DNA of 64,000 bases, taken from NCBI GenBank assembly GCA_903882905.1, contig CAIRYW010000004.1:49117-113116 (forward strand), written 5' to 3'. Position 1 is the first letter of the stretch. Each line of letters begins with the position of its first letter. Below, piece after piece: positions 4,141-41,645 of the stretch. The stretch is from an uncultured bacterium. Its GTDB lineage: Bacteria; Patescibacteriota; Minisyncoccia; Phycocordibacterales; CAIRYW01. The notes under the pieces are model-generated. The model did no database searches and was not told the origin of the DNA. It saw only the letters and a list, made by a program, of their open reading frames with translations. A program made the translations under genes and the position numbers.

Positions 4141-4186
4141 AATTTTATTTTATCTTGTAATATTATAAATGCTTCCTGCCAACATT

Positions 4187-4507: not shown

Positions 4508-4517
4508 TTTTTTACTC

Positions 4518-25473: not shown

Positions 25474-25575
25474 AAGTAATATAATAAACCTAATCGAACA
25501 AAAACCAAGCGGACGTTCGAAACTTACAGTTTCAGTACACCTTTTAAAAAATATTTTGAGATAAAAAAATACCTT

Positions 25576-25612
25576 CATGAGAAAGACCCAAAGGTCGGTC
25601 TCATGAAGGTCG
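25576..25612 (-). terminator. hairpin terminator downstream of the 92-aa GC-rich ORF
   Basis: cttcatgagaAAGacc-caaa-ggtCGGtctcatgaag: imperfect 16-bp inverted repeat, followed on the minus strand by a T-run. Confidence 0.5.
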
Positions 25613-26147: not shown

Positions 26148-26220
26148 GGGCCCATAGCTCATCTGGTAGAGCGCCTCATTTGCACTGAGGAGGTGAGCGG
26201 TTCGAGTCCGCTTGGGTCCA
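26148..26220 (+). tRNA. tRNA-Ala (anticodon UGC)
   Basis: GGGCCCAtaGCTCAtcTGGtaGAGCgCCTCAtTTGCAcTGAGGaggtgaGCGGTTCGAgTCCGCtTGGGTCCa. 7-bp acceptor stem with the G3:U70 Ala identity pair. D- and T-arms present. Anticodon loop tTTGCAc. No encoded CCA. Confidence 0.9.
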
Positions 26221-27709
26221 CAATAGTAGACTGAGACGCCGAAATGGCGTCTTTTGTCTTGAAAAGACAACACATTTCAGTGGTTCCAAAAAAATTATTC
26301 TGAAAGACTAAACCTGAGGGGAATTGGAACCATTGCAACTTAACTTTTACTCCGATTTTTGCTTTTCTCCATATTTCACTTGGGTTTTTAAGATATTTTT
26401 CAAGAAAATCTATAGCCTCCTCATAATTTGTTTCTGTGTTAGGCATAGAAGCAAGTGAAGCATTTGCCTCAAATAATTCGTTCTCAATCATAGCAAGTTG
26501 TTGTTTAAGGACATTGTCTGAAATAACTCCATCTAAATTTTTCTTGATAATCCCAGACTGCTTATTCGTGAGTTCACTTATATGTTTCTTTAATCTCTCG
26601 GCGTCTTTTCTTTGTTCAAATGTTGCCTTCACGAGATTTTCCTTTACCAATTCTTTTAGTCTTTTGAGTTTTACATCATCAAAGCAAAATTTATTTACGT
26701 AAGTCATAAAAACTTTTTCAAACTCATCACGGTTATGATTTGAGTTATTGCCACCAAAACGGTAAAAGGGATATTTTTGTTTACGCCCACTAGACCAACT
26801 TCCTGTAAGTTTTTTTCCGTTATCGTTTATAACAAACCTACGAAGAGGAAAATCTGGATGGTCTGTAATATGTTGTGAATTTTTTTTGGCTTTACCCTTA
26901 AGAACACGTTGGACTTGATAAAAAATATCTTCAGGAATGATGGGTTCAAATGTTCCTTTATGTCTTTCTCCAAATTTAACAATCCATCCTGTAAAGACTT
27001 CATTTGTTAATAACTTGTAAAAATATGCTTTGCAAAGTGGTTTACCTTTTCTATTACACAAGCCCCTTTTAATCATCATCCTTCTCACTTCTTCTGTTGG
27101 ATACGTGTTAGAAGCCATAAGAGAAAAAGTTTCTTTTATTATCGGAGCCATTATTTCGTTCGGTGCAATTGTTGACCTGCCACCAACTTTTACATTGTCG
27201 TAACCAACTGGAGCCATCCAAACATAACGACCATCCCGCATTGCGTCTTTCATTCCTCCTGCACATCTCTCTGAACGAATATCATTATCAAATTGTGCAA
27301 TGTTTGACATTGTATTCTCCATAAACCTACCTACAGGCGTATTTTCAAAATGTTCAGATGTAGATTTAATTTCTACTCCGTATCTCTTTAGTAAAAGTCG
27401 GAGTTGACTATAGTCATCTGTGTTTCTTGATAGACGGTCCAATTTATAAATTATAACTGCCTTAACTGCGTTTTTTTTATCTGCACAGTAAGTCAAAAGT
27501 TTCTGAAGCTCTGTGCGGTCCGTTGTCTTCGCACTCTCACCTTGTTCAATATAAATCTGTGTAATTTCGTATTCATTCTTTAAGGCGTAATCCTTACAGA
27601 TTTTTTCTTGTGTGCTTAAACTATTTCCTTCTTCAACCTGCTCCTTGCTTGATACTCGGCAGTAAGCCACCGCCTTCTTTTTTTGACTCGTGTAATTTAT
27701 TTCGTTCAT
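26159..27709 (-). CDS. large serine recombinase (resolvase/invertase catalytic domain plus recombinase and zinc-ribbon domains)
   Basis: 516 aa. N-terminal AVAYCRVSSKEQ catalytic-Ser region. Recombinase-domain and coiled-coil C-terminal features. The 3' end of the ORF reads antisense across the 3' half of tRNA-Ala (tail ...VDPSGLEPLTSSVQMRRSTR is tRNA complement), so the true stop may be earlier and the gene abuts or overlaps the tRNA. Confidence 0.85.
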   Translation of the reverse strand: MNEINYTSQKKKAVAYCRVSSKEQVEEGNSLSTQEKICKDYALKNEYEITQIYIEQGESAKTTDRTELQKLLTYCADKKNAVKAVIIYKLDRLSRNTDDYSQLRLLLKRYGVEIKSTSEHFENTPVGRFMENTMSNIAQFDNDIRSERCAGGMKDAMRDGRYVWMAPVGYDNVKVGGRSTIAPNEIMAPIIKETFSLMASNTYPTEEVRRMMIKRGLCNRKGKPLCKAYFYKLLTNEVFTGWIVKFGERHKGTFEPIIPEDIFYQVQRVLKGKAKKNSQHITDHPDFPLRRFVINDNGKKLTGSWSSGRKQKYPFYRFGGNNSNHNRDEFEKVFMTYVNKFCFDDVKLKRLKELVKENLVKATFEQRKDAERLKKHISELTNKQSGIIKKNLDGVISDNVLKQQLAMIENELFEANASLASMPNTETNYEEAIDFLEKYLKNPSEIWRKAKIGVKVKLQWFQFPSGLVFQNNFFGTTEMCCLFKTKDAISASQSTIVDPSGLEPLTSSVQMRRSTR

Positions 27710-27908
27710 ATTCTTTTTGGTCCAAAAATGCCTCTACTAGAATACTTGCGAAGTAATCTAGAGCAACATCCTCTGGGACATTATTAGAGCTATTAAAACC
27801 AAAAGAGGGACAACGAAGGGACTCTTTGTTGCTACACATCAAGTCTCGTTGCCCCTCTTTGGGTACAAAATTATAAGCCCCTACTTTACTGATGTGTAGC
27901 CTACTCAT
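27633..27908 (-). CDS. questionable small ORF
   Basis: 91-aa ORF overlapping the 5' end of the serine recombinase by about 76 nt. No motif. Confidence 0.2.
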   Translation of the reverse strand: MSRLHISKVGAYNFVPKEGQRDLMCSNKESLRCPSFGFNSSNNVPEDVALDYFASILVEAFLDQKEYERNKLHESKKEGGGLLPSIKQGAG

Positions 27909-27912
27909 AATA

Positions 27913-29031
27913 TCATTTTCCCTTCATTTTTTGAAGGAGATTAGACAACTCTTTTTCACTAAATTGGTAGACAATTTCTCTACTTTTTCCTTCAAAATCT
28001 ATGTTTCTTATGATTTCAATTTGCCTTTCCTCCTCAATATGTCCATAGCCGTAAGAGCCAAAGGTTGTTCCAACATCTTCGTGACCTAAATTTTGGCTGA
28101 TAGCCTTTTTCTGTTCTTCCGTTAGGGGTAGTTTTGATATTGCTTTAATGAGTAAGTGCCTAAAAGTGTGTGGATGATAATATTTAACTCCAGCCTGTAC
28201 AAATCTTTTTTCAAATATTTTTCTAACTGAAGTTGGACTTTTCCAAAAAGTTGGTTCAACTTCCTGTGTGTTGTAGTAACCTAAATTTTCCTTACCACAC
28301 TCAACTTTGGTTTTAGGAAAAATAGGGTCATTCGGACCGAATTTCTTCTGTTCTAATAAATAATCAAACCACTTAATAAAATAGTCTAGCGGTTCTTTGT
28401 ATGAAAAAGGTATTAGAGTGGAGATTATTCTCTTTGAGAATTTCGTTTTTACACCTAATTTTGGGTCTTGGTCTACAGTTAGCTTTTCTCTATCAAAGCA
28501 TTTCATTGGAAGAGATGTGATTGCAGAAATTCTAGCTCCAGTTAAAAAGGTTAGAGAAATTAAAGCTTTATCCCTCATTTCAATTTCAGTATTACCACCG
28601 ATATTTTCAATTACTAGCCTTATTTCATCTAAGGTTGGCGATAATTTGCTTTTTGGTTGAGTTGCAATCTTAATTTCTTGCCTTGATAGATTTAAATAAT
28701 CAATATCTGTTTGATTGATTTTTGACTTGTATCCAGATTGTCTAGATAACCACTCAAAGAAAGTCTTTAAATGTCTTATAATGTCGTAACAATAGGATAT
28801 GCTGATATTTCCTTCAGTGTGAACTTTTTTCTTGCACTTAAGCCAATTTTTGAAATTCTCAGCTTTTATTTTAGTAAAACCCGCTAAGTCACCTTTATTA
28901 GTAAAATCCTCCCAAAGATATACTGCGTCTTCAAAGCATTCAATTGTTGTTTTAGAGAATCCTTTGGAGTTGGCTAAGTAGTCATAGAATTTTCTTTTTA
29001 CCACTTCATTTTTCTGGGTTATTGATGACAT
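27913..29031 (-). CDS. tyrosine-type site-specific recombinase/integrase
   Basis: 372 aa. N-terminal SAM-like domain. C-terminal catalytic HPHTFRHLLI ... LGHEDVGTTFGSYGY (R-H-R-Y constellation with terminal Tyr). Confidence 0.85.
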   Translation of the reverse strand: MSSITQKNEVVKRKFYDYLANSKGFSKTTIECFEDAVYLWEDFTNKGDLAGFTKIKAENFKNWLKCKKKVHTEGNISISYCYDIIRHLKTFFEWLSRQSGYKSKINQTDIDYLNLSRQEIKIATQPKSKLSPTLDEIRLVIENIGGNTEIEMRDKALISLTFLTGARISAITSLPMKCFDREKLTVDQDPKLGVKTKFSKRIISTLIPFSYKEPLDYFIKWFDYLLEQKKFGPNDPIFPKTKVECGKENLGYYNTQEVEPTFWKSPTSVRKIFEKRFVQAGVKYYHPHTFRHLLIKAISKLPLTEEQKKAISQNLGHEDVGTTFGSYGYGHIEEERQIEIIRNIDFEGKSREIVYQFSEKELSNLLQKMKGK

Positions 29032-29093
29032 ATTTTTTTAGTATTTATTATTGGTTTCTAATGGGACATTTAAGAGGTGTATCAAGTAATCAT

Positions 29094-29498
29094 TTAATCC
29101 TTTTGGCATATCTTTAAAAATCTGTTTATTTTTGTTCCACATTGCTCGCATAATCCTATTTTCTTTTGTTGCTCTATTTTATTTTTCCCTATCCTTTTTC
29201 CAGTTTTGACGATATTTTCACTACCGTTCAAGGCCTCAACAACCTTCTTGCATTTGAAGCAGTAAAATTGATTTTTAGCCAAAGGCTTTTTTTTAGCTGA
29301 CCGTTTTTGGTTGATAAATATTTTTAAATCTTCGCCCATAATCAATAGTGGACTGGAATCCTCATCAACTACTTTTAGGTTCTCCTTTTTAATCCATCTG
29401 GAACAAGTTTTTCTGTCAACGTTCAAAAGTGTTGCTATATCCTTGATTGAATAGCTACTCCTAGATTTAATTAAGTGGATGTTGTATTTATTGGCCAT
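29094..29498 (-). CDS. HTH (excisionase/MerR-like) DNA-binding protein with C-terminal CxxC...CxxC zinc ribbon
   Basis: 134 aa. YSIKDIATLLNVDRKTCSRWIKK helix-turn-helix. CFKCKK...CEQCG zinc-ribbon. Confidence 0.5.
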   Translation of the reverse strand: MANKYNIHLIKSRSSYSIKDIATLLNVDRKTCSRWIKKENLKVVDEDSSPLLIMGEDLKIFINQKRSAKKKPLAKNQFYCFKCKKVVEALNGSENIVKTGKRIGKNKIEQQKKIGLCEQCGTKINRFLKICQKD

Positions 29499-29666
29499 TA
29501 AGAAGCCTACTATTTACTTGGCAGGCTCTTGAACGCCGATATGGCACCAGCCAAGTAAGCAATAGGTTTACTCTTTGGCGTTCAAGATTTTGCCAAACAA
29601 AAAAAGGCCTACTATCAGCCTACGCTTTTATAAAAATTCAAATACCTACATTAAAAAAATAGGTAT

Positions 29667-30746
29667 TTAAATGTCCCTAATATCTTTTGGTTTATTTTTT
29701 ACACTTATTGATTTAGCAAAGCGTGTCACGGATTTCTTTATAGCGTCAGCTGTCATTTCTATTCCGTAATCTTTTTTTAAAATTTTGGAAATTATTGTCT
29801 CTTTGTATATTCCCGCTAAAGAAAGATTTTCTTCTCCTTTGTACTGTTTTAATAAATCCTTTTTCGATAGTTTACTTAATTCATAAATCATCTGGTTTTT
29901 CTCTGTATCGCTTTCCTTAATTCTATTTGGATGAACATCAAATTGCTTATAAAAAGTATTCTTCATTGTAATGTGCTCTTTAAGGTCATCCCAGTTGTCT
30001 TCAATGTATTGGATGGTTTCTTCCTTCGTTGCGTAAGGTTTGATTATTAAAAAAACGCTGTCAAAGTGCAAAGAAAGACGGCGTACGAACTCTTTATTGA
30101 AAATATAATTTTCACCTCCCATTCCTTCGTCCTGACCTTCCATATCGTGTCTATCGGGAGAGAAGTGGTCAACGCCAATATACCTGCAATGGTGGCAAGT
30201 CACTTTGCTTTTAATATATTTATTGATACCGTACTCACCTAGAAATAAATATTTTTCCACAAAATGACCGATGATTTGTCCATCCAATAAATCAAGTCCC
30301 CAAAATTTTCTGATTAGTCTAATAGTTTCTGGAAATAGTTTCTTTGTGTATTTATTTTTGGGAAGCATTATATTTTTAGACAACATATGATTATGGTCTA
30401 AAAGTTGTTGTCCTAGCCAAAATACCATCTTTAAATCTTTCTCTTTTTTACCTTCCTTTTCGTAAGCTTGCATTACTTTTTCTCTACTCTCATCAGTAAT
30501 CGGAATGTTATTATTTATGTGATAGTTATCAGCAAACGCAAAAAAAATGAGAAGATATTTTTCTTTTTTACTCATCTTACTAACAAAGAAAAGTGCTAAA
30601 TCGGTTTCATTGTTAAAGCCAACTTCAGGCATACCAAGCGTTTTTCTGGTTTCTTTTACAGTATCAAGAAAACCCTCTTTAAAAAGTAATTTTTTATAAA
30701 GAGTTCTAAATTTTTTCTCAAAATCATCTGCAGAATATTTCTTCAT
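29667..30746 (-). CDS. hypothetical protein, recombinase-associated family (paralog of 37727..38464)
   Basis: 359 aa. Shares an N-terminal region with the 37727..38464 product (RKTLGMPEVGFNNETD vs RKTFSIPEDGFENEID; RKFWGLDLL vs RSRNWGFDIS). Confidence 0.5.
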   Translation of the reverse strand: MKKYSADDFEKKFRTLYKKLLFKEGFLDTVKETRKTLGMPEVGFNNETDLALFFVSKMSKKEKYLLIFFAFADNYHINNNIPITDESREKVMQAYEKEGKKEKDLKMVFWLGQQLLDHNHMLSKNIMLPKNKYTKKLFPETIRLIRKFWGLDLLDGQIIGHFVEKYLFLGEYGINKYIKSKVTCHHCRYIGVDHFSPDRHDMEGQDEGMGGENYIFNKEFVRRLSLHFDSVFLIIKPYATKEETIQYIEDNWDDLKEHITMKNTFYKQFDVHPNRIKESDTEKNQMIYELSKLSKKDLLKQYKGEENLSLAGIYKETIISKILKKDYGIEMTADAIKKSVTRFAKSISVKNKPKDIRDI

Positions 30747-30752
30747 ATCTTG

Positions 30753-31676
30753 TTACTTAGATATTCTCGCCTGTAGAAGAGCAATCAACTGCGCCATTAA
30801 AGAAGCTAGCTGTGCTCTTAGTGAAGTAATCAGAGCCTGTTTTTGAGCGTCAGTAATAGTTGTAGAGTTGTTTGACTGCGAATAAATAGAATTAATTTTG
30901 TTTATTGTTTGAGTATCAAGATTTCCAAGATTAGCAGTCAACCCTTGAGCTTTCTGAAACTTAATCAAAGCATTTTTTGTTTTTGTTCCAAAATAATTAC
31001 TTTCGTTACCAGAAGAACCAGAACCAGATGTTGAGACAGTATATCCTTGTGAATTTAAAAATCTTTGAAGGACAATTATCTCTGAATCTGTTACACCAAA
31101 AGCTAATGGGGTAATCAAAAGTGGAGTTGATGAACTTGTAAAAATAGAAGACGTAACTGGTCCTGAAGTAGCAGTCAAGATAGGAGTAACAATTGGGACT
31201 ATGCTACCTCCACCTCCGCCACCAGATGAAGACCCTCCACCAGAAGAACCGCCGCCCCCACCTCCTCCTGTACTTGGAGGAACAGCTACAGCTACAGGAA
31301 TACTGTAAGTAAAATTTAAATTATTTAATTGAGAAACCCCCTCCTGAAATCCAGCAACTGATATAGTCGTACTACCTAAACTTTCTTGTCCAGATAATAT
31401 TGATGGTGATTGGAAAGTAAATGTAATAGGTCCAACACCTTCACCAATATGAAGTTTTTGTGCAGTTGAAGAAGCATAACCATAATTACCAGAACTATCA
31501 GTAACAGACTGTCCTGCTAAAGTAGTTCCGTAATATGCACGAATTATAGTGCCTGTAGGAGCAGTATTACCATTTATGGTTGCAACACCGTAGAAAGCCA
31601 TTGGAAAACTTGGAATAGATTGAGCAAAAGAAAATAATGGTAAAACAAATAAAGCTGTTAGTAGTATCTTTTTCAT
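30753..31676 (-). CDS. secreted protein with Gly-rich linker and C-terminal putative peptidoglycan-binding (PG_binding_1-like) domain
   Basis: 307 aa. Signal peptide MKKILLTALFVLPLFSFA. (G)n/(S)n linker. C-terminal LQRFLNSQGY...YFGTKTKNALIKFQKAQGLTANLGNLDTQT. Confidence 0.55.
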   Translation of the reverse strand: MKKILLTALFVLPLFSFAQSIPSFPMAFYGVATINGNTAPTGTIIRAYYGTTLAGQSVTDSSGNYGYASSTAQKLHIGEGVGPITFTFQSPSILSGQESLGSTTISVAGFQEGVSQLNNLNFTYSIPVAVAVPPSTGGGGGGGSSGGGSSSGGGGGGSIVPIVTPILTATSGPVTSSIFTSSSTPLLITPLAFGVTDSEIIVLQRFLNSQGYTVSTSGSGSSGNESNYFGTKTKNALIKFQKAQGLTANLGNLDTQTINKINSIYSQSNNSTTITDAQKQALITSLRAQLASLMAQLIALLQARISK

Positions 31677-31681
31677 AAGTT

Positions 31682-33316
31682 TTATTGAACGTTAGTTCTC
31701 CAGGATGAAAGGTCCTGCATAAAATTAATTAGCTGATTACCTTGAGAAGTATTTACACTTATTCCTTCAAACTGGACAGCGTATGTGTTTACTCCTGGGT
31801 TCAATACAGCAAATGTGTAAGTAACTGGGATTGTAACATTGTTGTTTCTGCCTAGAGTGAAGCTCTTACTGTCACCAGACAAGGTTGTACCTGTTGATTG
31901 ACTGTAGTTTACAGTTAACAAGTAGTTTGTTGATGTATCTTTAGCACCGTTTGCGTAAACAGTTACAAATGATGTACTTGTTGCAAATGAAGGTGTTGAA
32001 GATGAAAGTAGACCAAATGTTGCATCTGTTCCTACTGCTGATAGATTCAAATTGAATGTACCTGAGTAAGTTGTAGTTGCATTACCTGATGTATCTGAAG
32101 GACCAACTGTCTTAACCAAGTTTGCTGAATTTAGAGCAACTTGTAGACCTAATCCAACAACTTTCTGAGTATTTCCAACAGCTAAACCATTGATTGTAGT
32201 TACTGTTTTATCAGACGAATCATAAAAAACGAAATCTGAAGTTGAAGCGATTACAGTTAGATTTCCTGTAAGAACACCTGTTACATCAACCTTAACTGTG
32301 TAAGGTAGAGTTGAGTTTACAGCAACCAATGCTCCCTGAGTTCCATCTGTGATGTTACTAAATGTAGCAACACCTCCTGAAACTGCAGCTGAAGCAACCT
32401 GTGTTGAACCTTGGTACAAATAAGCAGCAGTAACTGTTCCTTGTGTTCCTGAAGTTGCAACGTTGATTGCTAGGTTATGAAGGTGAACAGCATCGTTTTG
32501 AGCGTTAACATCAAAAATCAATACTGGAAGCTTCAAATACTGACCGTTTGTTGTGTCAGTAACTGCAACTTGACTTTGTTGAGGTGAAGATGAGTCAAGT
32601 GAAATATTAACGTATGCGGTTGTTGATGATGAAGTAGTAGTTGCTGGAATATCATTATTTTGAGTACCAATATATGAGGCTCCAGGTTGAGTAATATATA
32701 TTGCATATCCTTTAGTTTCTCTAAAATCATTCAAACTATTTACATCACTAGGAATAGCTGTTTGCCATTTGTCAGAAACAGAAACACTATTTATATTTGA
32801 ACTACTAGCTGTTAAATCAACAACTGAATCATAGTCACCAGAAAGTGAATTTAAGATACTACTTGGGTTATTTGTATTAGTAGATGCGTCTGTGACTGGG
32901 TCGGCATATGTTGGGTTAGCAATACCTATTGAATACCATCCAGCTGAGGAAAAAGTTCTTGAAAAAAATCTTTGGTTTGGAGTAGTGCTTGCTCCGTAAT
33001 TAAAAATTAATGTTTGTGTAGTTGTGCTTTTGTTATTTATAAAATATCCATAAAGAGGAGTAAATTCTGTTTGCTCAAGGTCAGCCATAGTTGACCAACC
33101 ATCAGTACTTGAAGCATTGAGAACATAAATATCAAAATTGTTTGAAGTTTCAGGAAGAGAAAAGGTATGTGAATCTAATATTCTTGGAGTAGAAATTATA
33201 TTCCATCCTGGAGTGAGTGAGACAGATTGATTATACGATACCGAAGCATTTGCGAAACTAACAATAGAAACAAAAGCTAAAAACACCACCGAGAGTAAAT
33301 ATTTTTTCATATTCAT
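31682..33316 (-). CDS. large secreted Ser/Thr-rich protein, hypothetical
   Basis: 544 aa. Signal peptide. Beta-rich, low-complexity S/T/N composition. No catalytic motif. Confidence 0.5.
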   Translation of the reverse strand: MNMKKYLLSVVFLAFVSIVSFANASVSYNQSVSLTPGWNIISTPRILDSHTFSLPETSNNFDIYVLNASSTDGWSTMADLEQTEFTPLYGYFINNKSTTTQTLIFNYGASTTPNQRFFSRTFSSAGWYSIGIANPTYADPVTDASTNTNNPSSILNSLSGDYDSVVDLTASSSNINSVSVSDKWQTAIPSDVNSLNDFRETKGYAIYITQPGASYIGTQNNDIPATTTSSSTTAYVNISLDSSSPQQSQVAVTDTTNGQYLKLPVLIFDVNAQNDAVHLHNLAINVATSGTQGTVTAAYLYQGSTQVASAAVSGGVATFSNITDGTQGALVAVNSTLPYTVKVDVTGVLTGNLTVIASTSDFVFYDSSDKTVTTINGLAVGNTQKVVGLGLQVALNSANLVKTVGPSDTSGNATTTYSGTFNLNLSAVGTDATFGLLSSSTPSFATSTSFVTVYANGAKDTSTNYLLTVNYSQSTGTTLSGDSKSFTLGRNNNVTIPVTYTFAVLNPGVNTYAVQFEGISVNTSQGNQLINFMQDLSSWRTNVQ

Positions 33317-33456
33317 TTTAATTATTTTTAAGCTAAAACTTACAATAAATAATACAGTACAATTAACATTTTGTCAAAGATAATAAGTGGAAAACATACA
33401 TTTAAGTATTTATAAACTAAGTAGTATTATTACTTAGTAATTTCTCTCACCAGTTA

Positions 33457-33560
33457 TTAATTAAATAAATATTTATGTTTAACTTTTTTCACAATCTAAG
33501 TGTCGGAATAATTCCAGTCTTTATTGCTTTTACTGGTATTTTTCATTCAAATAATAACAA
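33457..33560 (+). repeat. conserved 5' module (upstream box plus leader-peptide coding region), copy 1 of 3
   Basis: agttattaattaaataaat upstream box, then atgtttaacttttttcacaatctaagtgtcggaat...gcttttactgg...tttcattc. About 85% nucleotide identity to the copy at 38678..38780. The same upstream box precedes the copy at 34275. Confidence 0.6.
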
Positions 33561-34269
33561 TTTAGCGATTACCGCTACAACCACAACAAGTGGTGCTACT
33601 TCTACAATAAACATAGAATCAACGACAACTATTCCTGTGGTTCAAACTATCAAAACTTCATCACAAACAAATACTCAAAAACAAATTGAAAATACTCCAG
33701 TTGCACACACAACAACTCAATCACCAACTATGCAGGAACAGGTTCCACAACAAGTTCAACCTACAGGTGAACTTTGTAACGGTACCTATTGGAGTAAGTG
33801 TCAATCGGGACAAAATTTTATTTGTCCACAAAGTGGTAATGCATATTGTCAAAGCTCTCAAGTACCTGTTCAACCACAGCAAACCACAAGTCAGACCCCT
33901 CAAAATCAACAAAATTCTGCTTCAATCACTGATGAACCTCCTGTAATAAATGGTATAACTCTACCCGCAAGAAATTACGCTGGAAGTGCAACTAATTTTT
34001 ATTTGACAGTATCTAACCCACAAGAAAATCCAATGAACTGTTTTGTTGACTGGGGTGATGAAAATGCACTAACTCCTATGTCAACCTCAAAGAGTACAGA
34101 CTTACGTATAGCACAAAATAATGTCCCACAAGAATTTTCACATTCCTACTCCAGTGCGGGCACTTATACAATATCTCTTATTATCACCGAACAAATATTT
34201 AATTCTTCCTCAGGTACTTATTTTGATGGTTTAAAAACACAAACAACTAAAACAATCGTTGTGCAATAA
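33475..34269 (+). CDS. secreted protein with conserved FFHNL-type N-terminal leader, Cys-rich region and C-terminal PKD-like domain
   Basis: 264 aa. Leader MFNFFHNLSVGIIPVFIAFTGIFHS. Cys-rich CNGTYWSKCQSGQNFICPQSGNAYCQ. VDWGDENALT...SHSYSSAGTYTISLIITE resembles the PKD WDFGDG...H.Y...G.Y.V motif. Confidence 0.55.
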   Translation: MFNFFHNLSVGIIPVFIAFTGIFHSNNNNLAITATTTTSGATSTINIESTTTIPVVQTIKTSSQTNTQKQIENTPVAHTTTQSPTMQEQVPQQVQPTGELCNGTYWSKCQSGQNFICPQSGNAYCQSSQVPVQPQQTTSQTPQNQQNSASITDEPPVINGITLPARNYAGSATNFYLTVSNPQENPMNCFVDWGDENALTPMSTSKSTDLRIAQNNVPQEFSHSYSSAGTYTISLIITEQIFNSSSGTYFDGLKTQTTKTIVVQ

Positions 34270-34274
34270 AAGTA

Positions 34275-34380
34275 TTAGTTATTAATTAAATAAATCATAT
34301 GTTCAGTTTTTTTCACAATTTAGGAATAGCATTTGTGTCGGCTTTCGTTGCTTTTACAGGGGCTTTGCATTCCCAACCTT
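34275..34380 (+). repeat. conserved 5' module, copy 2 of 3
   Basis: agttattaattaaataaat box immediately upstream of atgttcagtttttttcacaattta...gcttttacagggg...ttgcattc. Confidence 0.55.
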
Positions 34381-35339
34381 TAGTTCAGACATCTGTAAAT
34401 CAAATTACTGCGACAACTACAGTACAAGCTACAAGTTCTGGGGATATAAAATCAAAGAGTAATTCTGTTCAAAATTCAAAAACAGAAACACAAAATACTG
34501 CGGATAGTGTTCCTCAACCAACAGTTCAAAATATAAATATCCCTACATCAATTACTCCACCTGTTACTACAACTGGTTATGCTTCATACTCAATCCTACC
34601 GTCAAACTTTTCAAATAATCCTCCGTATTATGTTGGAACCAAAATAAAAATCAGTGGAAATATTAAAGATTTTCTAGCTAATGGTGATAGAGCAGTAACT
34701 TCAAATTATATTGAGATAAAACCAGCCAATTCTCAGAACGGCGAACTTCCTTATATGATGCTCCAAATCAACTCTAGTACTAACTACCAACAAGCTGTAT
34801 CAACTTTGACTAAGGGAGATTCTATAACTGCGTACGGAACAATAACAGCAAGTCAAAATTTTACTGACCCTTTAGGAATCGTCAGCATAATTCCAGTTCT
34901 TAATATAGTTAGAATAGATAAGTGCAATACATCGTTATCCTGTAGTGTAAATGTTGGACTACAAACTGTTTTTCCTTATACACCAAGTCAAAGTATTAGT
35001 AACAATGCTAATAATAATTTCGTTTCGATTAGTGCTATACAACAAAATCCTAATTTATATTTAAATCACGTAATATCCACAACTGGTAAAATATATGAAA
35101 TCCTTGACGCTAAAGATGGGGGGAGTTCTTTACTAATGACGCAAGACCCAAAGAGTAGTAGCGACCTAGTTTCAATTGCAGTAGATTCAGTTTTTTTCTC
35201 AAAAAATAATATACAAGTTGGAGATATTATTCAGATGACAGGTACGTTAACATCTAATTCAAACTCTTATCAAAGTGAATATGGTATTGCTGTTCCTTCC
35301 TATTTCATCGAGAGCGGAACCATCACATTAAGTAATTAA
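34299..35339 (+). CDS. secreted protein with conserved FFHNL-type N-terminal leader, hypothetical
   Basis: 346 aa. Leader MFSFFHNLGIAFVSAFVAFTGALHSQPLVQTSVNQITATTT shared with the 38693 product over about 45 aa. Divergent C-terminal region. Confidence 0.5.
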   Translation: MFSFFHNLGIAFVSAFVAFTGALHSQPLVQTSVNQITATTTVQATSSGDIKSKSNSVQNSKTETQNTADSVPQPTVQNINIPTSITPPVTTTGYASYSILPSNFSNNPPYYVGTKIKISGNIKDFLANGDRAVTSNYIEIKPANSQNGELPYMMLQINSSTNYQQAVSTLTKGDSITAYGTITASQNFTDPLGIVSIIPVLNIVRIDKCNTSLSCSVNVGLQTVFPYTPSQSISNNANNNFVSISAIQQNPNLYLNHVISTTGKIYEILDAKDGGSSLLMTQDPKSSSDLVSIAVDSVFFSKNNIQVGDIIQMTGTLTSNSNSYQSEYGIAVPSYFIESGTITLSN

Positions 35340-35514
35340 TAAAATATTTAAAATAAAAAACCCACTAGAAATCGGAAGCTAGTGGGTTTTTATATTGTAT
35401 TATGAAAATTTCAATTTGTTTACCAAGTATTAACAACACTGAATTTATTGATGGAATTAGATATAAGCAACGTTCTAACTTCGTCTAGTACTCCCAGCAG
35501 TAGGCCAAATACAC

Positions 35515-37266
35515 CTAGTTAATTTGTTTATCAGCCTCATATTCCCTCAAAATAAAGGTTAAATACTCACATTCTCTAGCAAATTTGTTCCAAAAATCAA
35601 ACCCCAAGTCCACAAATCGAGATTTATTGGTGTCGAATTCGTTAGATAGCTTGTAGGGTAAGGATAATTTTGGTGTTCCATTAACTATTTCTTCATAAGT
35701 AGGTAGTTTGTCGAATACCAACCCATAAAGGGACCTCAATTTAGTAAAATCCTTTTGTTTTATAAGGTATTCTTCTGGGTGTTCCATTATTTTTTTTACG
35801 TAGCCTACAAAAGCGTGAATATCGTTCTCCTTAATTTCTAATTTATTTCTTTCACCTTCAGTACTCAATATCTGCTTTTGTATTTCCTCAATCTTTTCTT
35901 CAAGGTCTTCTCGGATGATTGTATTAGTAGTCCCTGTAAAGGCATCAATCAATCTTTTCTTTTCTGTTTTAAGTTCAATAACAGTAGTTCCTGTTTGACT
36001 AGCAAATTCTCCAAGCTCTTTTTCTTTTTCCCTATATTTGTTTTTAATAGTTGCCTCGAGGCTTCTAAAGTAATTTTCGTCACTATAAGTTATCTTTTTT
36101 ACAAACTCACTTAAATTCTTTTCGAAAGTATCTTTACTTACCCCGTAATATTTGTGATTTCTACAGCAATGGTAAGTTGGATATTTTTTTATCTTACCTT
36201 TAGGGCTACTGCCCAAAAATGGCTTATCGCAATGAGGACACAAAATTACATCTTTAAAATGAAAAAGTGGGTTATTTCTTGTTCGCTTTAATTGGAGAGG
36301 ATTGAAATCCTTTAAAATTTTAATCGAGCCATTTTTTTGTTCATCGATATAAATCTGACCCCTATTGGCATCATTAAACTTTTTAATGCTTACTAAGCCT
36401 TTATATTGAGTTCTGGTGGGCTCAAGAACCCACTTCTCTATGTTTATTCCACAGTAGATAGGTCTTTTTATGATGCTCTGTAATTTTTTAACAGTAAGCT
36501 TTAATCTACCCCTTGAGCCAATTACTTTACTTTTATCTTTTGACCAGTGTTTTCTATCTCTTGAGCGGTAGCCCATTGCATTGAGTTTTCCGACAATTTG
36601 AATATCAGAAAAAGCACCAGAAGCCCTAAGTTCAAACATTTTTGCAAAGTAATGTGCTCTTTCTGGGTCTGGAACCTGAATAACTCTTTTTTTATTTTCT
36701 ACAAATACTTTTTGATTAATATATCCATCATCAGCTTGTCTAACTTTATAACCTTCTCTTACCAAGTTTATTTCAGAACCAATCATTCTAGTTAGAATCA
36801 CATTCACTTCATTTTTCCCTTGCTGAGCCATAACGAGCTCTGATATTTCGCTTGGATAGATTCTGCTCCAATCATATTCCATACCTAAATGTTCGAGGGT
36901 ATTTTTAGAAGGTTGTATTACTCCATTCGCATCAATTAACTCAACTCCATATTTTGCAAGCAACTGTTTTAACGTTTCGTATCCAAGAGTTCCATTTCTT
37001 GTAAAACGGTCAATGGCACGAAAAATCAAGTAATCAATTTTTTTATTTGATTTTTTTATAAATGTGATGATGTCTTCAATTACTGGTCTTTCATTTTTTC
37101 TACCTGAATATTGTTCCTTGAACACATTAAGCACTTTTAAATTTTTTCTCTCGGCAACGCCTAAACAAATTTTTGCTTGGTCTTCAATGCTTTCGCCTTG
37201 CTGAGCCTGTTTTGTTGTACTTACTCGACAGTATACTAGGCAGTTTTTATGAGGTAAGTTTTCCAT
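35515..37266 (-). CDS. large serine recombinase
   Basis: ORF-track start 37320 is a TTG. The ATG at 37266 (MENLPHKNCLVYCRVSTTKQ) is the likely start. Resolvase catalytic domain (YCRVST...DRFTRN), recombinase domain, zinc ribbon (CPHCDKPF...YHCCRNH), C-terminal coiled coil. Confidence 0.85.
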   Translation of the reverse strand: MENLPHKNCLVYCRVSTTKQAQQGESIEDQAKICLGVAERKNLKVLNVFKEQYSGRKNERPVIEDIITFIKKSNKKIDYLIFRAIDRFTRNGTLGYETLKQLLAKYGVELIDANGVIQPSKNTLEHLGMEYDWSRIYPSEISELVMAQQGKNEVNVILTRMIGSEINLVREGYKVRQADDGYINQKVFVENKKRVIQVPDPERAHYFAKMFELRASGAFSDIQIVGKLNAMGYRSRDRKHWSKDKSKVIGSRGRLKLTVKKLQSIIKRPIYCGINIEKWVLEPTRTQYKGLVSIKKFNDANRGQIYIDEQKNGSIKILKDFNPLQLKRTRNNPLFHFKDVILCPHCDKPFLGSSPKGKIKKYPTYHCCRNHKYYGVSKDTFEKNLSEFVKKITYSDENYFRSLEATIKNKYREKEKELGEFASQTGTTVIELKTEKKRLIDAFTGTTNTIIREDLEEKIEEIQKQILSTEGERNKLEIKENDIHAFVGYVKKIMEHPEEYLIKQKDFTKLRSLYGLVFDKLPTYEEIVNGTPKLSLPYKLSNEFDTNKSRFVDLGFDFWNKFARECEYLTFILREYEADKQIN

Positions 37267-37428
37267 ACGTATATTATATCTCGTTTTTGCTTGTACTGAT
37301 TTCTTCTTTCCACATAGCAAAAAATATCTCAGCTAATTGGTCTTGCTTCTCTCTGAGTTCAAGAATTTGTTCTTCGCTTAATCGTTCAGCCGATGAACCG
37401 AGAGCCGTCTTGTAGTCTTCAAGGCTCA

Positions 37429-37677
37429 TCATAGGCTATTTTGGCTCTGTTTTCGGTTGTCCTCAGAGCAGGAAAGAGCAACAAGGTGTTTGAGAATTAC
37501 TCGTTTATCCTGAGGTCTATAATCAGACTTCTCAACCAACTTATTAAACCAGCGGTTTACTGCATCCTTACTAAAATTTTGTCCCTTTATTGCACGGGAA
37601 AAGTTTATGAAGCTACTTATATTGTTATTTTTTTGTTCTAAGCTGTTGAATCTTCGTTGGATACTTCTCATACCCAA
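37429..37677 (-). CDS. questionable small ORF
   Basis: 82 aa with no motif. Sits between the serine recombinase and the paralogous hypothetical gene. Confidence 0.25.
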   Translation of the reverse strand: MGMRSIQRRFNSLEQKNNNISSFINFSRAIKGQNFSKDAVNRWFNKLVEKSDYRPQDKRVILKHLVALSCSEDNRKQSQNSL

Positions 37678-37726
37678 AAGTCTATTACGTGAGGACTTGC
37701 AAGTAGACTACATTTAAAAAGAACTT

Positions 37727-38464
37727 TTATTTGTCACGGATAGATTTATTTTGCCTATGTATTATTTGTCTAACATTTTCTGGCTCAATATTAAAACCAC
37801 GTTTTCTCATTATTGTTGAAATATTTAAGTCTTTGTATGTTGAAGTTGAGCCACTAATCTTGTTGAGTTCTTTGATTTTCATTTGACCGTAGAGGTATAC
37901 AAGACTGTCTCTTTCTATGTTCGTTGATTGCTTATATTTTGTCTTTACAACTTTATTCTTATGCATCTCTGTAAAAACTTTTTGAAATGATTCGATTAAT
38001 CCTTTTTCTTGCTTTAGGAATAAATTAATATCTGTGGGTCTTGAACTTTCTCCGATTTTTAAATAAATACCATCTTTTAACTCATTTTTAATCCACGCTC
38101 TGTTACGGGGTGTAATTAAATACATATCACATCCAGTAGTACTTGCAGAATCCAACCTAAAATTTTTAACTTTTCCATAATGTATAAAATCATAAATAAC
38201 ATAATCTAGGCTTGATATATCAAAGCCCCAATTACGACTTCTAATTTTTGCCATTAATTCTAAAGATTTAAGGTTGAGTTTTTTATTTTTTATCAGGTCT
38301 GCAAGCCACTTTTTATAATCAATTTCATTTTCAAATCCATCTTCAGGAATAGAAAAAGTTTTTCTATAGTCGTTAACCATAGTGTTAAAGGATTTCTTCG
38401 CAGAAAGTTTTTGCCAAATAGACCTAGCTTTATTATTTTTTAGCATAATACACATAGTATACAA
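37727..38464 (-). CDS. hypothetical protein, recombinase-associated family (paralog of 29667..30746)
   Basis: 245 aa. See the paralog evidence above. Located immediately downstream of a recombinase, as is its paralog. Confidence 0.5.
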   Translation of the reverse strand: MYTMCIMLKNNKARSIWQKLSAKKSFNTMVNDYRKTFSIPEDGFENEIDYKKWLADLIKNKKLNLKSLELMAKIRSRNWGFDISSLDYVIYDFIHYGKVKNFRLDSASTTGCDMYLITPRNRAWIKNELKDGIYLKIGESSRPTDINLFLKQEKGLIESFQKVFTEMHKNKVVKTKYKQSTNIERDSLVYLYGQMKIKELNKISGSTSTYKDLNISTIMRKRGFNIEPENVRQIIHRQNKSIRDK

Positions 38465-38677
38465 CGCATATTCTAGGTGTTATAGTTTAAGTACAACTGA
38501 ATAAAGAAAGTAGCCTAAACTTTGAGATTTTTGTTTCAAGGCACGGTGAAAAGAATCCTGACACGGATAAAAAACCCATCATATGGGGTTACCGTGTCAG
38601 GTCACACTGGGAAACTGGTGTGGATAGCGAAAGCTGTCACCTATGTGGTGGGCTTTTTGCTATTCAATTATTAGGTA

Positions 38678-38780
38678 GCTAATAATAAAAATATGTTCAA
38701 TTTTTTTCACAATCTAAGTATCGGAATTTTCTCTGCGTTTCTAGCTTTTACTGGGGCTTTTCATTCTCAAACACAACCAG
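38678..38780 (+). repeat. conserved 5' module, copy 3 of 3
   Basis: atgttcaatttttttcacaatctaagtatcggaat...agcttttactggggcttttcattc. 32/35 identity with copy 1 across the first 35 coding nucleotides. Confidence 0.6.
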
Positions 38781-39520
38781 TAGTCCAAACGCCCGTAACT
38801 CAAATAGTAGCAACAACTACGGAGCAAACTTCAGTATCTGCTCCAGTACTTAAAACTCCCCAAACTCAAAATTCCACAAAAGAGACACCGACAACTGCCC
38901 CAGCTTCCACTTCAGTACCACCAACAGTGATTTCCAAAAATATCTCAATAAATTATTTGCCTGCTTATCTAGCTTTTCTAAATTCACAAAAAGATTTTTT
39001 TATCAAACAAAGAAGTATCTTAGACCCCCTAATTGCTGATGCACAAAGCAAATCAGATTCATATGATGAGCAGGCAAGCTATTTTAGTGGACTCATAGGT
39101 CAAGGACTTGCTGGACAGATATATCAAGGCGTCGCCAATCAAAGTAAAAGTGCATCTCAAGTATATGTTGCCTTAATTTCATCATTAAAAACGGTTCAGT
39201 CTTTTGATGATGATGCGATAAATATCATCAATGCAGAAGAGAACAAAGACGTTGGATTATTCTTATCATCTGATGAATACACAGCCAAATATAATTCAAT
39301 GGAAACATCTCTCAGTTATCGGTATAACCTAATTGTGAGTGATATAAGTAAGGAGGGAAATGCATATTTTGCTCAAGACAAAAAAATGAGAGATGACGAG
39401 GCACAGTTACTTGGTCAATTACAATCTCTAGCCACAGCTCCTAATCCAGTTAATTTACAACCGCCAACTCCACGAATAACCATTTGTAATTTTTCAGGAA
39501 GTACTATTATCTGTAATTAA
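38693..39520 (+). CDS. secreted protein with conserved FFHNL-type N-terminal leader, hypothetical
   Basis: 275 aa. Leader MFNFFHNLSIGIFSAFLAFTGAFHSQTQPVVQTPVTQIVATTT. C-terminal Cys pair (ICNFSGSTIICN). Confidence 0.5.
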   Translation: MFNFFHNLSIGIFSAFLAFTGAFHSQTQPVVQTPVTQIVATTTEQTSVSAPVLKTPQTQNSTKETPTTAPASTSVPPTVISKNISINYLPAYLAFLNSQKDFFIKQRSILDPLIADAQSKSDSYDEQASYFSGLIGQGLAGQIYQGVANQSKSASQVYVALISSLKTVQSFDDDAINIINAEENKDVGLFLSSDEYTAKYNSMETSLSYRYNLIVSDISKEGNAYFAQDKKMRDDEAQLLGQLQSLATAPNPVNLQPPTPRITICNFSGSTIICN

Positions 39521-39591
39521 ATTCTATGGGACAAGAAACGCTTTTAGCTAATTAGGGATGCTTTATTGCAACCAGTAAGATAGAAAGAAAT

Positions 39592-39921
39592 CTATTTTTT
39601 TATAGTTGTTCCATTGTTTTGTAATTGTTGCGAAAGATTGTCAATTTTAGTATTTATAGATTCGTAAGAAGATGTTTTGGTATTGTTTGATTCTACAACA
39701 AGTGCTTGCATTGCAGTTAATGTAGACACAAATCCTAAAAATAAAACAATAATTACTCCAATTACTATACTCCACATTAAAGTATTAAAAGATTTTATTG
39801 TAGATTTTAAGTCCGAAATTCTTGTATCAAGAGCACTTTCTGTGAGCGGATTAGATACATCAATTTTAGCTTTGCCTGTAGATGTATTATCAGTAATTTT
39901 TTGTTCTATTTCGTTTTTCAT
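39592..39921 (-). CDS. small single-TM membrane protein, hypothetical
   Basis: 109 aa. Central TM WSIVIGVIIVLFLGFVSTLTAM flanked by polar Ser/Thr/Asn-rich regions. Confidence 0.4.
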   Translation of the reverse strand: MKNEIEQKITDNTSTGKAKIDVSNPLTESALDTRISDLKSTIKSFNTLMWSIVIGVIIVLFLGFVSTLTAMQALVVESNNTKTSSYESINTKIDNLSQQLQNNGTTIKK

Positions 39922-40206
39922 TTATAGATTATTTCTCTCTGGAACATCAGTGGCTTTTGCTAAAAATAACCTAATTTCTCCCGTATCAGCATTTAAAAAT
40001 GCTTTTATTACAAGCCCAGACGTCTGAGAAGCTGAAATCATTTGAGCACCAGCTATAGTGACAACAGGGAGCATATTTAGGTGTTGTATTTCAGTCCAAG
40101 TACCTCCTGAAGCATTTAATATTCCTCGTATTTCTTCTAATGAAATTATTCGTGGGGGCATAAATTTATTGTGAAAGTAATTATATATCTTTTTTATCAT
40201 TTTCAA
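39922..40206 (-). CDS. hypothetical protein
   Basis: 94 aa. Start/stop abut the neighbouring genes, giving a three-gene minus-strand operon 40543..39592. Confidence 0.35.
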   Translation of the reverse strand: MKMIKKIYNYFHNKFMPPRIISLEEIRGILNASGGTWTEIQHLNMLPVVTIAGAQMISASQTSGLVIKAFLNADTGEIRLFLAKATDVPERNNL

Positions 40207-40216
40207 AGTACTTATT

Positions 40217-40543
40217 TTATGAAATTATTTCTGATAAAGAAGATGTGTTAGTAGAATCTGGGTCTTTATACTGGGTCAAAATAACTTGAAAAGGCTCAAA
40301 ATCTGTTTCTACATCCATACTTTGTGAGAGTTTTCCGTACGCTCGGTCGGCAAGCCATTCACGAGCTCTCTGGTTGCCTGAGGTAGCTTGCTCTATTGCC
40401 TTATCAACAATTGGCTCGAAAGAAATAATAAGTTTCCGTACAATAAGTTCTCTAGCTTTTTCAGCCTCAATACCAGCAAATCCTTTTTTTCTTCCTGCAT
40501 TTTGTCTGTAACCGCCTCTCATAATTTGATAAGAATCAAACAA
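40217..40543 (-). CDS. hypothetical protein with basic N-terminal HTH-like segment (phage/mobile-element-like)
   Basis: 108 aa. GGYRQNAGRKKGFAGIEAEKARELI resembles the GRPxxG DNA-binding N-termini of terminase-small-subunit/transposase HTH proteins. Weak. Confidence 0.35.
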   Translation of the reverse strand: MFDSYQIMRGGYRQNAGRKKGFAGIEAEKARELIVRKLIISFEPIVDKAIEQATSGNQRAREWLADRAYGKLSQSMDVETDFEPFQVILTQYKDPDSTNTSSLSEIIS

Positions 40544-40796
40544 TCATACATAACTGTTATCTAACTGATGAGCAGTATACTTTCTCCCTGTTCTTTGCCT
40601 GTTTATCAAGGGAATAAGTTGTAGTTCTATAATGTAATGGGTAAGTTGAAACATAACAAAAGATAAACATTTCGTTGCTAAATATATGTGCTTTTTCATA
40701 CTATTACTACCGATTCAAAGCCGTTAAAAACGGCATTCCATTTAATAACCATATTTTCTATAGTGTTCCATTCCAGACCCTCTGAGCCCACAAATA

Positions 40797-40825
40797 CTAA
40801 AAAACACCACATTTGTGGTGTTTTT
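40797..40825. terminator. perfect hairpin with flanking A- and T-runs
   Basis: aaaaaACACCACAttTGTGGTGTttttt. The NYN ORF-track start codon (atgtggtgt) lies inside this hairpin. Confidence 0.6.
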
Positions 40826-41526: not shown

Positions 41527-41533
41527 TTCAAAA

Positions 41534-41556
41534 GCCCCGCTTTTGGCGGGGCTTTG
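41534..41556. terminator. Rho-independent terminator between convergent NYN and ddl genes
   Basis: aaaaGCCCCGCttttgGCGGGGCttt. Confidence 0.7.
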
Positions 41557-41645
41557 ATTAAAATCCGGTGCAAGTTTTACCTTACATAAATACATTACAC
41601 CACATTATGATGTAAGTCAAAAGACTTGTGTGGATAAATTTAATG

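Follow-up and report, generated by a model that had tools for sequence, protein, structure and literature searches.

Introduction

Elements and prophages of the large serine recombinase (LSR) type, among them phiC31, Bxb1, SPbeta, TP901-1 and the Tn4451-type elements, insert site-specifically by means of an integrase composed of Resolvase, Recombinase and Zn-ribbon domains, and the repeats that flank them are very short or absent. Their excision requires an unrelated and hard-to-recognise second protein. The actinomycete AICEs of the pSAM2 type and the integrative mobilizable elements use tyrosine integrases, carry transfer genes (FtsK-like or relaxase), and combine a compact int-xis-rep style with integration at tRNA 3' ends, with cargo that varies and with elements that accumulate in tandem at a single tRNA. 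The CPR/Patescibacteria are ultra-small bacteria that account for a large part of bacterial diversity; to our knowledge hardly anything has been described of their mobile elements, and few genetic tools exist for them. CPR serine-integrase elements were not found described in our literature searches. Here, we characterize two such modules in a 64,000-nucleotide stretch of DNA from an uncultured member of the Patescibacteriota (the window), together with the protein family, named F, that heads both of them.

Two Forms of One Protein Family

Both F genes of the window are on the minus strand, where an ORF check places the 359-aa frame at 30746..29667 and the 245-aa frame at 38464..37727.

29667..30746, minus strand: F359, long-form member of F, with 161 homologues at E<=0.001
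37727..38464, minus strand: F245, short-form member of F, probable start at 38446

The F245 protein probably starts at the ATG at 38446, because its homologues start with MKNKKA. The original prediction held that the two proteins have an N-terminal motif in common, and the similarity proved real and statistically significant in proper alignments. BLASTP aligns 38 aa at 45% identity (E=4e-7), with a weaker C-terminal match (E=0.016). An HMM made from long forms only, with both window proteins left out, finds F245 at E=1.9e-7, or at 1.2e-4 if the search space is set to a nominal 1e6 sequences, and a short-form-only HMM finds F359 at E=1.6e-33. A second shared motif (RKFWGLD / SRNWGFD) is aligned by MAFFT. 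By sequence comparison, F359 and F245 are the long and the short form of one family.

At 50% identity, family F falls into about 240 clusters, the majority of the short form, and it was seen in CPR/Patescibacteria only. The long form is about 360 aa and the short form 220-265 aa. The best 120 of the 161 homologues of F359 are 50-71% identical and nearly all about 360 aa, with a few truncated fragments; across CPR phyla the long form is 50-75% identical at uniform length. At its C-terminus the long form carries the conserved sequence PKDIRDI. F245 has very few close relatives, and a protein search seeded with the short-form alignment returned four proteins. The AF2 models of the two proteins are well folded and confident (pLDDT 83 and 93).

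F is a previously unclassified protein family. In Pfam, NCBIfam, PHROGs and PADLOC no profile reached or approached its curated threshold with F, the family profile had no match among PDB sequences, Foldseek found none among the BFVD viral structures, and no relative was present on IMG/VR viral contigs. The family was not found described in literature searches. One further candidate, a 257-aa ORF upstream in locus L026, was considered as a second F gene and rejected by HMM comparison.

A Genomic Island at tRNA-Ala

Both F genes lie within a strain-specific island whose left junction is the 3' end of a tRNA gene.

26148..26221, plus strand: tRNA-Ala(UGC), attachment point of the island (ARAGORN; Rfam tRNA, 64 bits)
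26224..41646, no strand: strain-specific island of about 15.4 kb, from tRNA-Ala to the ddl stop codon (comparison with L029)

The tRNA-Ala gene is 100% identical in the related genome L029, and identity stops about 3 nt past its 3' end. The two genomes are syntenic over uvrA-uvrC-ddl, with Ddl proteins 91% identical in amino acids. Between ddl and tRNA-Ala, L029 has only 1.4 kb of unrelated DNA versus 15.4 kb in the window, and 26224-41646 is therefore an island that holds both F-LSR modules, in tandem, together with genes for secreted proteins. In the window, no distal att site and no second stretch of tRNA-Ala sequence that would mark one was detected, and no tRNA or tRNA remnant beside SR601 was matched at 35300-35750.

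Gene Content of the Two Modules

Module A is transcribed from F359 towards the tRNA and ends in a recombinase of 516 aa.

30753..33316, minus strand: two secreted proteins, a PG_binding_1 protein of 307 aa and one of 544 aa (signal peptides in the translations)
29094..29498, minus strand: HTH134, 134 aa, HTH plus DUF5679 zinc-ribbon (Pfam DUF5679 5e-6, HTH_28, HTH_17)
27913..29031, minus strand: tyrosine recombinase Y372 (Pfam Phage_integrase 1.4e-10; PHROG integrase 6.9e-21)
26159..27709, minus strand: large serine recombinase SR516, 516 aa, last gene of module A (Pfam Resolvase 6e-32, Recombinase 2e-8; PHROG integrase 1.4e-76)

The last 21 or so codons of SR516 are antisense to tRNA-Ala. HTH134 matches the NCBIfam 'excise' domain weakly and is a candidate excisionase-like protein. 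Orthologues of Y372 occupy the same position in loci L013 and L017. The genes for the 307-aa protein (PG_binding_1 3e-11) and the 544-aa protein, which are probable cargo, immediately precede F359 and share its strand, and F359 may be co-transcribed with them in the window.

Module B has the smallest gene set of the window's modules: F245, an 82-aa protein and SR601.

37429..37677, minus strand: 82-aa protein between F245 and SR601 (weak HTH_36 match)
35515..37320, minus strand: large serine recombinase SR601, last gene of module B (Pfam Resolvase 1.5e-17, Recombinase 9e-5)
33475..35339, plus strand: two paralogous secreted/membrane proteins, 264 and 346 aa (direct-repeat family D1, translations)
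38505..38645, plus strand: LOOT RNA (RF03000), divergent from F245 (Rfam, 85.7 bits)
38693..39520, plus strand: 275-aa secreted/membrane protein downstream of LOOT (ORF translation)

SR601 further matches Zn_ribbon_recom (0.012) and PHROG integrase (2e-36), and both SR516 and SR601 have the domain makeup of a large serine recombinase, a catalytic Resolvase domain and a Recombinase domain. The 82-aa protein is 52% identical to a 96-aa ORF of locus L007 and is kept in the L007/L008 module. The 264-aa, 346-aa and 275-aa proteins begin alike with MFNFFHNL.

The original prediction had described each F protein as lying directly after a recombinase and before genes for surface proteins. The neighbours indeed have signal or transmembrane segments at their N-termini, and a PG_binding_1 domain is present in one of them. 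The order is correct in plus-strand coordinates only; by transcription, F lies upstream of the recombinases. Module A had been recognised by its tyrosine integrase and HTH protein, both of which are present, with the 516-aa serine recombinase (27709..26159) overlooked.

Recurrence of F-LSR Elements across CPR Bacteria

In each of the 15 distinct loci that extend far enough downstream (nine long-form, six short-form), F is followed by an LSR on its own strand, so the neighbourhood check on homologues bore out the predicted linkage. One locus of each form comes from the window; the others are L001, L004, L011, L013, L015, L016, L017, L020, L008, L022, L025, L026 and L027. The order is co-directional and regular: F comes first, one to six small or variable genes intervene, and the LSR is last, with a tRNA beyond it. 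Wherever the sequence extends that far the LSR abuts a tRNA gene, and the 3' end of the LSR gene runs into a tRNA (Ala, Asn or Met) on the opposite strand or into an intron-bearing gene. The limits of the islands were set by tRNA-derived direct repeats (25 nt in L025, 13 nt in L004 and L003) or by comparison with a related genome.

Two genes alone are constant across the modules, F and the LSR. The constant recombinase partner is thus the serine recombinase, as the original prediction had it for one of its two modules, and the tyrosine recombinase is confined to the tRNA-Ala subtype. The small Xis-like proteins to be expected, with HTH_17 or with HTH and DUF5679, are encoded by other genes of the elements. 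A protein of about 375 aa in tRNA-Asn-type elements was considered as a divergent form of the window's tyrosine recombinase and rejected (E=0.18).

The elements measure 3-10 kb and have neither structural genes nor an IMG/VR match. No phage genes occur in the approximately 20 loci examined, and with no viral matches either, a phage origin of F was rejected. The proposal that F marks a mobile-element family, as its cargo, holds for the recurrent hallmark and fails for the cargo: judged by gene order and sequence comparison, F is a core hallmark gene of CPR-specific small LSR elements at tRNA 3' ends.

Conserved Sites around F

The end of the long-form gene coincides with a conserved cis-element.

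29640..29685, minus strand: imperfect palindrome of about 46 bp over the F359 stop codon, AGATATTAGGGACATT-TAA-N13-TAATGTAGGTATTT
29605..29621, minus strand: terminator-like hairpin and T-run, 46 nt past the F359 stop
29513..29601, no strand: 25-nt inverted repeat in the spacer between F359 and HTH134 (repeat search)

The palindrome spans the stop codon in 12 of 12 long-form loci, and the window copy contains the box AATGTAGGTAT at 29652..29642. A box AATGTAAGTAT stands exactly 15 nt past the F stop in 12 of 12 long-form loci, whichever gene comes next, and the third positions of the last six F codons are conserved in 11-12 of these 12 loci. Related boxes occur upstream of F in eight of the 12; at F359 in the window no upstream box is present. 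L017 has kept the 25-nt inverted repeat, with a C>T / G>A pair of changes that compensate each other. Alternatively, the palindrome could form a 3' hairpin in the RNA, serve as promoter for the gene that follows or be bound by a different protein.

At the short form, the neighbouring feature is an RNA. LOOT (RF03000) is a strongly covarying orphan RNA motif without an assigned function, and the window copy is a full-length member (85.7 bits versus a gathering score of 46.4, model positions 1-121) that scores 128 bits by a covariance model built in this analysis. It is followed by a hairpin and T-run and then by the gene of the 275-aa secreted protein. The divergent F/LOOT layout is found in five of eight short-form loci and, by analogy, would be a classic regulator-target arrangement. 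The papers searched gave no function for LOOT, and its back-to-back placement with short-form F in LSR elements was not found in them. LOOT was also considered as an att site and rejected, as it sits mid-element in the repeat-delimited L025.

Proposed Function of F

Beyond the observed homology, family extent, linkage to LSR and tRNA genes, island status and conserved cis-element, we infer DNA binding, a binding site and a regulatory role for F. Our preferred reading, tentative at a probability of about 0.45, is that F is the core sequence-specific DNA-binding control protein of a CPR-specific LSR element family. F would bind DNA through a helix-turn-helix-like domain at conserved sites flanking its own gene. 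In favour of this reading are the confident AF2 models, the conserved boxes and codon positions, the terminator past F, the divergent F/LOOT layout and the supply of Xis-like proteins by other genes; against it, neither the long nor the short form matches a curated HTH family, and F359 lacks an upstream box. Putative sites are, for the long form, the 46-bp palindrome that spans the stop codon, together with the related promoter boxes, and for the short form the short spacer between F and the divergent LOOT RNA/secreted-protein unit. F would set the expression of the downstream recombination module and the adjacent cargo, and would thereby decide whether the element stays integrated or excises.

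It is possible, if unlikely, that F is instead a recombination directionality factor (RDF) or other LSR partner that switches the integrase from integration to excision. Known RDFs are conserved neither in sequence nor in fold, may measure about 250 aa and escape recognition by homology; they bind their cognate integrase at its DBD2/coiled-coil junction (PMC12286644). The constancy of F and the LSR alone, and a minimal module with just the 82-aa protein besides, fit such a partner, and the PKDIRDI tail of the long form could be a docking peptide. However, this tail falls on nucleotide-level constraint and so may not be a peptide motif. RDFs are also cognate-specific, yet F diverges in only loose coupling with the LSR: the window and L017 are 70% identical in the LSR and 54% in F, the window and L001 22% and 58%, and the Spearman correlation of the two divergences is 0.49 among long forms and -0.14 among short forms. 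This tends to speak against F as a cognate-specific partner, and the smaller Xis-like proteins (HTH_17, HTH plus DUF5679) are more conventional candidates.

An improbable alternative is that F initiates replication of the excised circle or ensures its partition or maintenance, with the palindrome or boxes as an origin or centromere-like site. Searches of F for motifs or domains of the nucleotide-binding, primase, helicase, HUH or Rep_3 type were negative, many elements encode proteins that suit a Rep role better (a conserved 375-aa protein, HTH_36 proteins, a 482-aa protein), and no iteron arrays were seen.

Somewhat more doubtful still is an action of F on RNA or the transcription machinery, as a Q-like antiterminator that reads past its own terminator or as a partner of the LOOT RNA. 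A wider scheme that joins F, LOOT RNA and the serine integrase in one system, with F as a new kind of universal control or directionality protein of CPR serine-integrase elements and its short form working with or controlled by LOOT in an RNA-linked integration/excision switch, is very improbable; if true, it would be without described precedent among serine recombinases.

That similarity and linkage have no functional meaning, F being decaying cargo or a chance neighbour of recombinases, is scarcely tenable: the few close relatives of F245 and the undetectable distal att site would fit it, but it is already contradicted by recurrence (the gene order in 15 of 15 distinct informative loci) and conservation (highly significant homology, 50-75% identity of the long form across CPR phyla at uniform length), as well as by two well-folded models.

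Significance

As a family-specific marker for compact tRNA-targeting serine-integrase elements, F offers a route to cataloguing the mobile DNA of CPR bacteria. The elements supply candidate integrase/att-site pairs, and possibly a directionality or control factor, for engineering these bacteria. The orphan LOOT RNA gains its first reproducible genomic context, by which its function becomes testable. Since the cargo of secreted and peptidoglycan-binding proteins varies, these elements are suggested to diversify the cell surface of episymbiotic bacteria.

Comparison with Known Systems

The preferred reading of F as a DNA-binding control protein can be set against several described systems. In the phage small terminase G20C TerS (PDB 4xvn), only the N-terminal HTH superposes on F. 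The HTH domains of TerS, Myb, sigma-4 and transposases cover about one fifth of F, without sequence similarity, and unlike a small terminase F has no oligomerisation core, terminase neighbour or phage context. The lambda Q locus (Q gene, qut/PR', tR') is similar in layout, with a regulator followed by a conserved site and a terminator before the controlled genes; this is an analogy of layout only, as no resemblance of F to any Q family, in structure or in sequence, was detected.

The CPR elements share with AICEs and integrative mobilizable elements the compact organization, the integration at tRNA 3' ends, the variable cargo and the tandem accretion at one tRNA, whereas the tyrosine integrases of those elements are accompanied by transfer genes, which are absent here, and they have no counterpart of F. 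With known LSR elements and prophages they share the three-domain integrase and the site-specific insertion with very short or absent flanking repeats. They differ from these in being small (3-10 kb), non-viral and restricted to CPR, in targeting tRNA 3' ends with an integrase ORF that runs into the tRNA, and in always carrying F as the first gene.

The F protein family

Both open reading frames are present exactly where the original prediction placed them:

30746..29667, minus strand: F359 (359 aa)
38464..37727, minus strand: F245 (245 aa)

The N-terminal similarity that had been proposed for these two uncharacterised proteins proved significant. Residues 12-49 align at 45% identity (BLASTP, E=4e-7), the C-terminal match is weaker (BLASTP, E=0.016), and the second motif quoted at the time is also aligned between them (MAFFT). 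An HMM of long-form relatives only, from which the window sequences and the short-form members were left out to avoid circularity, matches F245 at E=1.9e-7 (1.2e-4 at a nominal search space of 1e6), and an HMM of 76 short-form proteins matches F359 at E=1.6e-33. The ATG at 38446 is the likely start codon of F245, since its homologues begin with MKNKKA.

At E<=0.001, F359 has 161 relatives; the 120 listed share 50-71% identity with it, carry source names from Parcubacteria and Magasanikbacteria, contain no Pfam domain and are nearly all about 360 aa long, with a few truncated fragments. An exhaustive search of 1.8 billion representatives with the family profile returned 239 proteins, among which the long form comprises only about six full-length 50%-identity clusters. 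Most of the other proteins are of the short form (220-265 aa) and match the profile in two stretches, N-terminal 10-70 and C-terminal 230-348. F245, whose sole close relative is P0122 (46%), is among them; F359 and F245 thus represent two architectures, long and short, of a single family, F. Two insertions mark the long form, one of which holds a near-invariant CxxC...H. Searches of Pfam, NCBIfam, PHROGs, PADLOC and PDB sequences gave no match for any member. When one genome per species was scanned, the long form occurred in 12 loci, 11 of them labelled CPR (Paceibacterota, Magasanikiibacteriota, Saccharibacteria, Patescibacteria) and the other a MAG labelled Bdellovibrionales; no F was found in IMG/VR viral contigs.

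AlphaFold2 models computed with family alignments are confident (F359, pLDDT 83, pTM 0.77; F245, pLDDT 93, pTM 0.71). Helices predominate in both, alongside a small beta element, and the conserved C-terminal four-helix region is predicted to be an HTH-like module.

Gene order of the modules

Three recombinase genes accompany the F genes:

26159..27709, minus strand: SR516, a large serine recombinase (LSR)
27913-29031, minus strand: Y372, a tyrosine recombinase with R, H-x-x-R and Y motifs visible
35515..37320, minus strand: SR601, an LSR

The F genes do not follow recombinases, as had been supposed when SR516 was overlooked, but lie transcriptionally upstream of them. Module A is transcribed in the order S544, PG307 (both secreted proteins), F359, a 134-aa HTH/DUF5679 protein, Y372 and SR516, and module B in the order F245, an 82-aa protein and SR601. 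The anticipated linkage to serine recombinases is recurrent: in every related locus with at least about 5 kb downstream of F, the scope of this count, a co-directional LSR is the last gene (long form, L001, L004, L011, L013, L015, L016, L017 and L020; short form, L008, L022, L025, L026 and L027). The L028 contig ends inside its last ORF.

Only F and the LSR are constant, and the middle genes vary. They encode HTH/DUF5679 and a tyrosine recombinase in the tRNA-Ala subtype; a 50-aa ORF, a conserved 375-aa protein, HTH_17 and restriction-modification or Bro-N cargo in L001 and L004; and DUF5659, SpoVG-like, HTH_36 or a 482-aa protein elsewhere. Otherwise similar modules carry either long or short F (L015 versus L008).

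The ~375-aa protein (L001 1598-2728, L004 11338-12462; 52% identity between the two elements) begins with MIDTI..., contains a RFE[IV]RL motif and has no match in Pfam, NCBIfam or PADLOC; it may serve these tRNA-Asn-type elements as a replication initiator. The tRNA-Ala-type elements (window, L013, L017) possess a tyrosine recombinase in addition to the serine integrase, possibly for dimer resolution or as a second integration system. Directly upstream of its F244 module, L026 has a second serine recombinase and, after it, a secreted protein with PG_binding_1 (2512-5295), a layout that mirrors the tandem recombinase, secreted-protein and F arrangement of the window.

tRNA target sites and the genomic island

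The 3' end of the LSR gene overlaps or abuts an antisense tRNA, which is tRNA-Ala in the window, L013 and L017, tRNA-Asn in L001, L004, L008, L015, L020, L025 and L026, and tRNA-Met in L022. A group I intron directly follows the serine integrase in the target-tRNA position in L011 (7139-7428) and L016 (6464-6734), where the target is probably an intron-bearing tRNA gene not called by ARAGORN. The SR516 ORF overlaps tRNA-Ala (26148-26221, plus strand) by 62 nt in antisense. Its last ~21 codons (26159-26225, minus strand, ...VDPSGLEPLTSSVQMRRSTR) are antisense of this host gene, so that excision would alter the C-terminus of the integrase. L017 likewise has an LSR C-terminus antisense to tRNA-Ala, and L001, L004 and L008 each have one antisense to another tRNA; no tRNA or tRNA remnant was found beside SR601.

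Direct repeats derived from tRNA genes delimit some relatives. In L025 the 3' end of tRNA-Asn recurs as an exact 25-nt copy 9.8 kb off; L004 has a 13-nt repeat core 9.5 kb off that encloses an ABC transporter as cargo, and L003 a 13-nt T-loop core ~320 nt upstream of F, giving a 6.4-kb element. No such repeat delimiting the island was found in the window. A related genome lacking the island, L029, shares uvrA-uvrC-ddl (Ddl 91% aa identical) and an identical tRNA-Ala with the window, and identity stops ~3 nt past the tRNA-Ala 3' end. Because ddl and tRNA-Ala are 1.4 kb apart in L029 versus 15.4 kb in the window, the entire 26224-41646 region is an island specific to this strain, located at tRNA-Ala. 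Inside it lie the two F-LSR modules, arranged in tandem with a shared orientation, together with five secreted/membrane-protein genes and the orphan RNA LOOT; module B may be an older element displaced by module A. The proposal that F is the hallmark of a mobile-element family is thus borne out by the recurrent LSR module and by integration evident from tRNA repeats or the L029 comparison.

Three secreted-protein genes share an 80-nt 5' end (33473-33552, 34297-34376, 38691-38770) encoding MFNFFHNL...AFTG..HS and diverge beyond it, and two of the three have an exact 19-nt repeat, AGTTATTAATTAAATAAAT, in front of them; the three look like a small variable surface-protein family on the island. 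On the other side of tRNA-Ala, 22817-25578 (minus strand) encodes a 770-aa DUF2075-like ATPase with a LexA/S24 peptidase-like C-terminal end and a MazG-like protein. The window and L029 differ on this flank as well, and both sides of tRNA-Ala are therefore variable. Elsewhere in the window, an AdoCbl riboswitch (8582-8712, minus strand) scores 51.7 bits against an Rfam gathering score of 50.

Cis-elements and LOOT RNA at F genes

All 12 long-form genes end in ...AAA GAT ATT AGG GAC ATT TAR, and the third positions of the last six codons are kept in 11-12 of the 12 loci, versus 5-9 for most earlier codons. Exactly 15 nt past the stop, whatever the next gene, each of these loci has the box AATGTAAGTAT (at most one mismatch). 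The frozen codons and the box form an imperfect ~46-bp palindrome over the F stop (29685..29640, minus strand, in the window; equivalent position in the 11 other loci), with a hairpin and T-run downstream. Conservation of the C-terminal peptide KDIRDI may partly be a DNA or RNA constraint. Related boxes lie just upstream of F in 8/12 long-form loci, and a perfect 12-bp palindrome spans the F stop codon of short-form locus L027. A 25-nt inverted repeat in the F359-HTH134 gene spacer (29513-29601) is also conserved in L017, which shows a compensatory change; it may represent either a binding site for a protein or a structured 5' leader.

Short-form F genes inside serine-integrase elements are associated with LOOT (RF03000):

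Window 38505-38645, plus strand
L007 9766-9906
L022 7802-7937
L024 61-194 (locus left out of building the search model)
L025 6383-6523
L027 6387-6528

In five of eight short-form loci (window, L007, L022, L024, L027), LOOT is encoded on the strand opposite F, 50-100 nt upstream of it, and in L025 it lies 1.5 kb upstream on the same strand; none was found in L026, L028 or any long-form locus. The next gene on the strand of LOOT always encodes a protein with a signal peptide or transmembrane segment. LOOT of the window is set apart from the 275-aa gene by a hairpin and T-run (~38640-38660), as an attenuator or an independent sRNA would be.

Possible role of F

F is tentatively regarded as a DNA-binding control protein of the element (probability roughly 0.45), because it stands first in the module and is terminated separately, contains a predicted HTH-like domain, is flanked by conserved, gene-independent boxes and is often divergent from the neighbouring transcription unit. 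Its constant pairing with the LSR would also suit a recombination directionality factor, a class with no conserved fold that homology cannot recognise (PMC12286644). This main rival is less likely; against it, the elements also hold conventional small Xis-like proteins, and F identity is coupled only loosely to LSR identity (window versus L017, LSR 70% and F 54%; versus L001, LSR 22% and F 58%; Spearman correlation 0.49 among long forms and -0.14 among short forms). Less likely still is a function in replication or partition, followed closely by one as antiterminator or LOOT partner. A meaningless F-recombinase association is ruled out by recurrence and conservation.

Relation to known elements

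Serine-integrase elements at tRNA genes are of a known kind. In the literature, within incomplete coverage, no description was found of this element family, of F, of the palindrome or of the LOOT association. What is new is a CPR-restricted element family (11/12 long-form loci labelled CPR) whose module is always headed by an unclassified hallmark protein, together with the frozen stop-codon palindrome of F and its association with LOOT.
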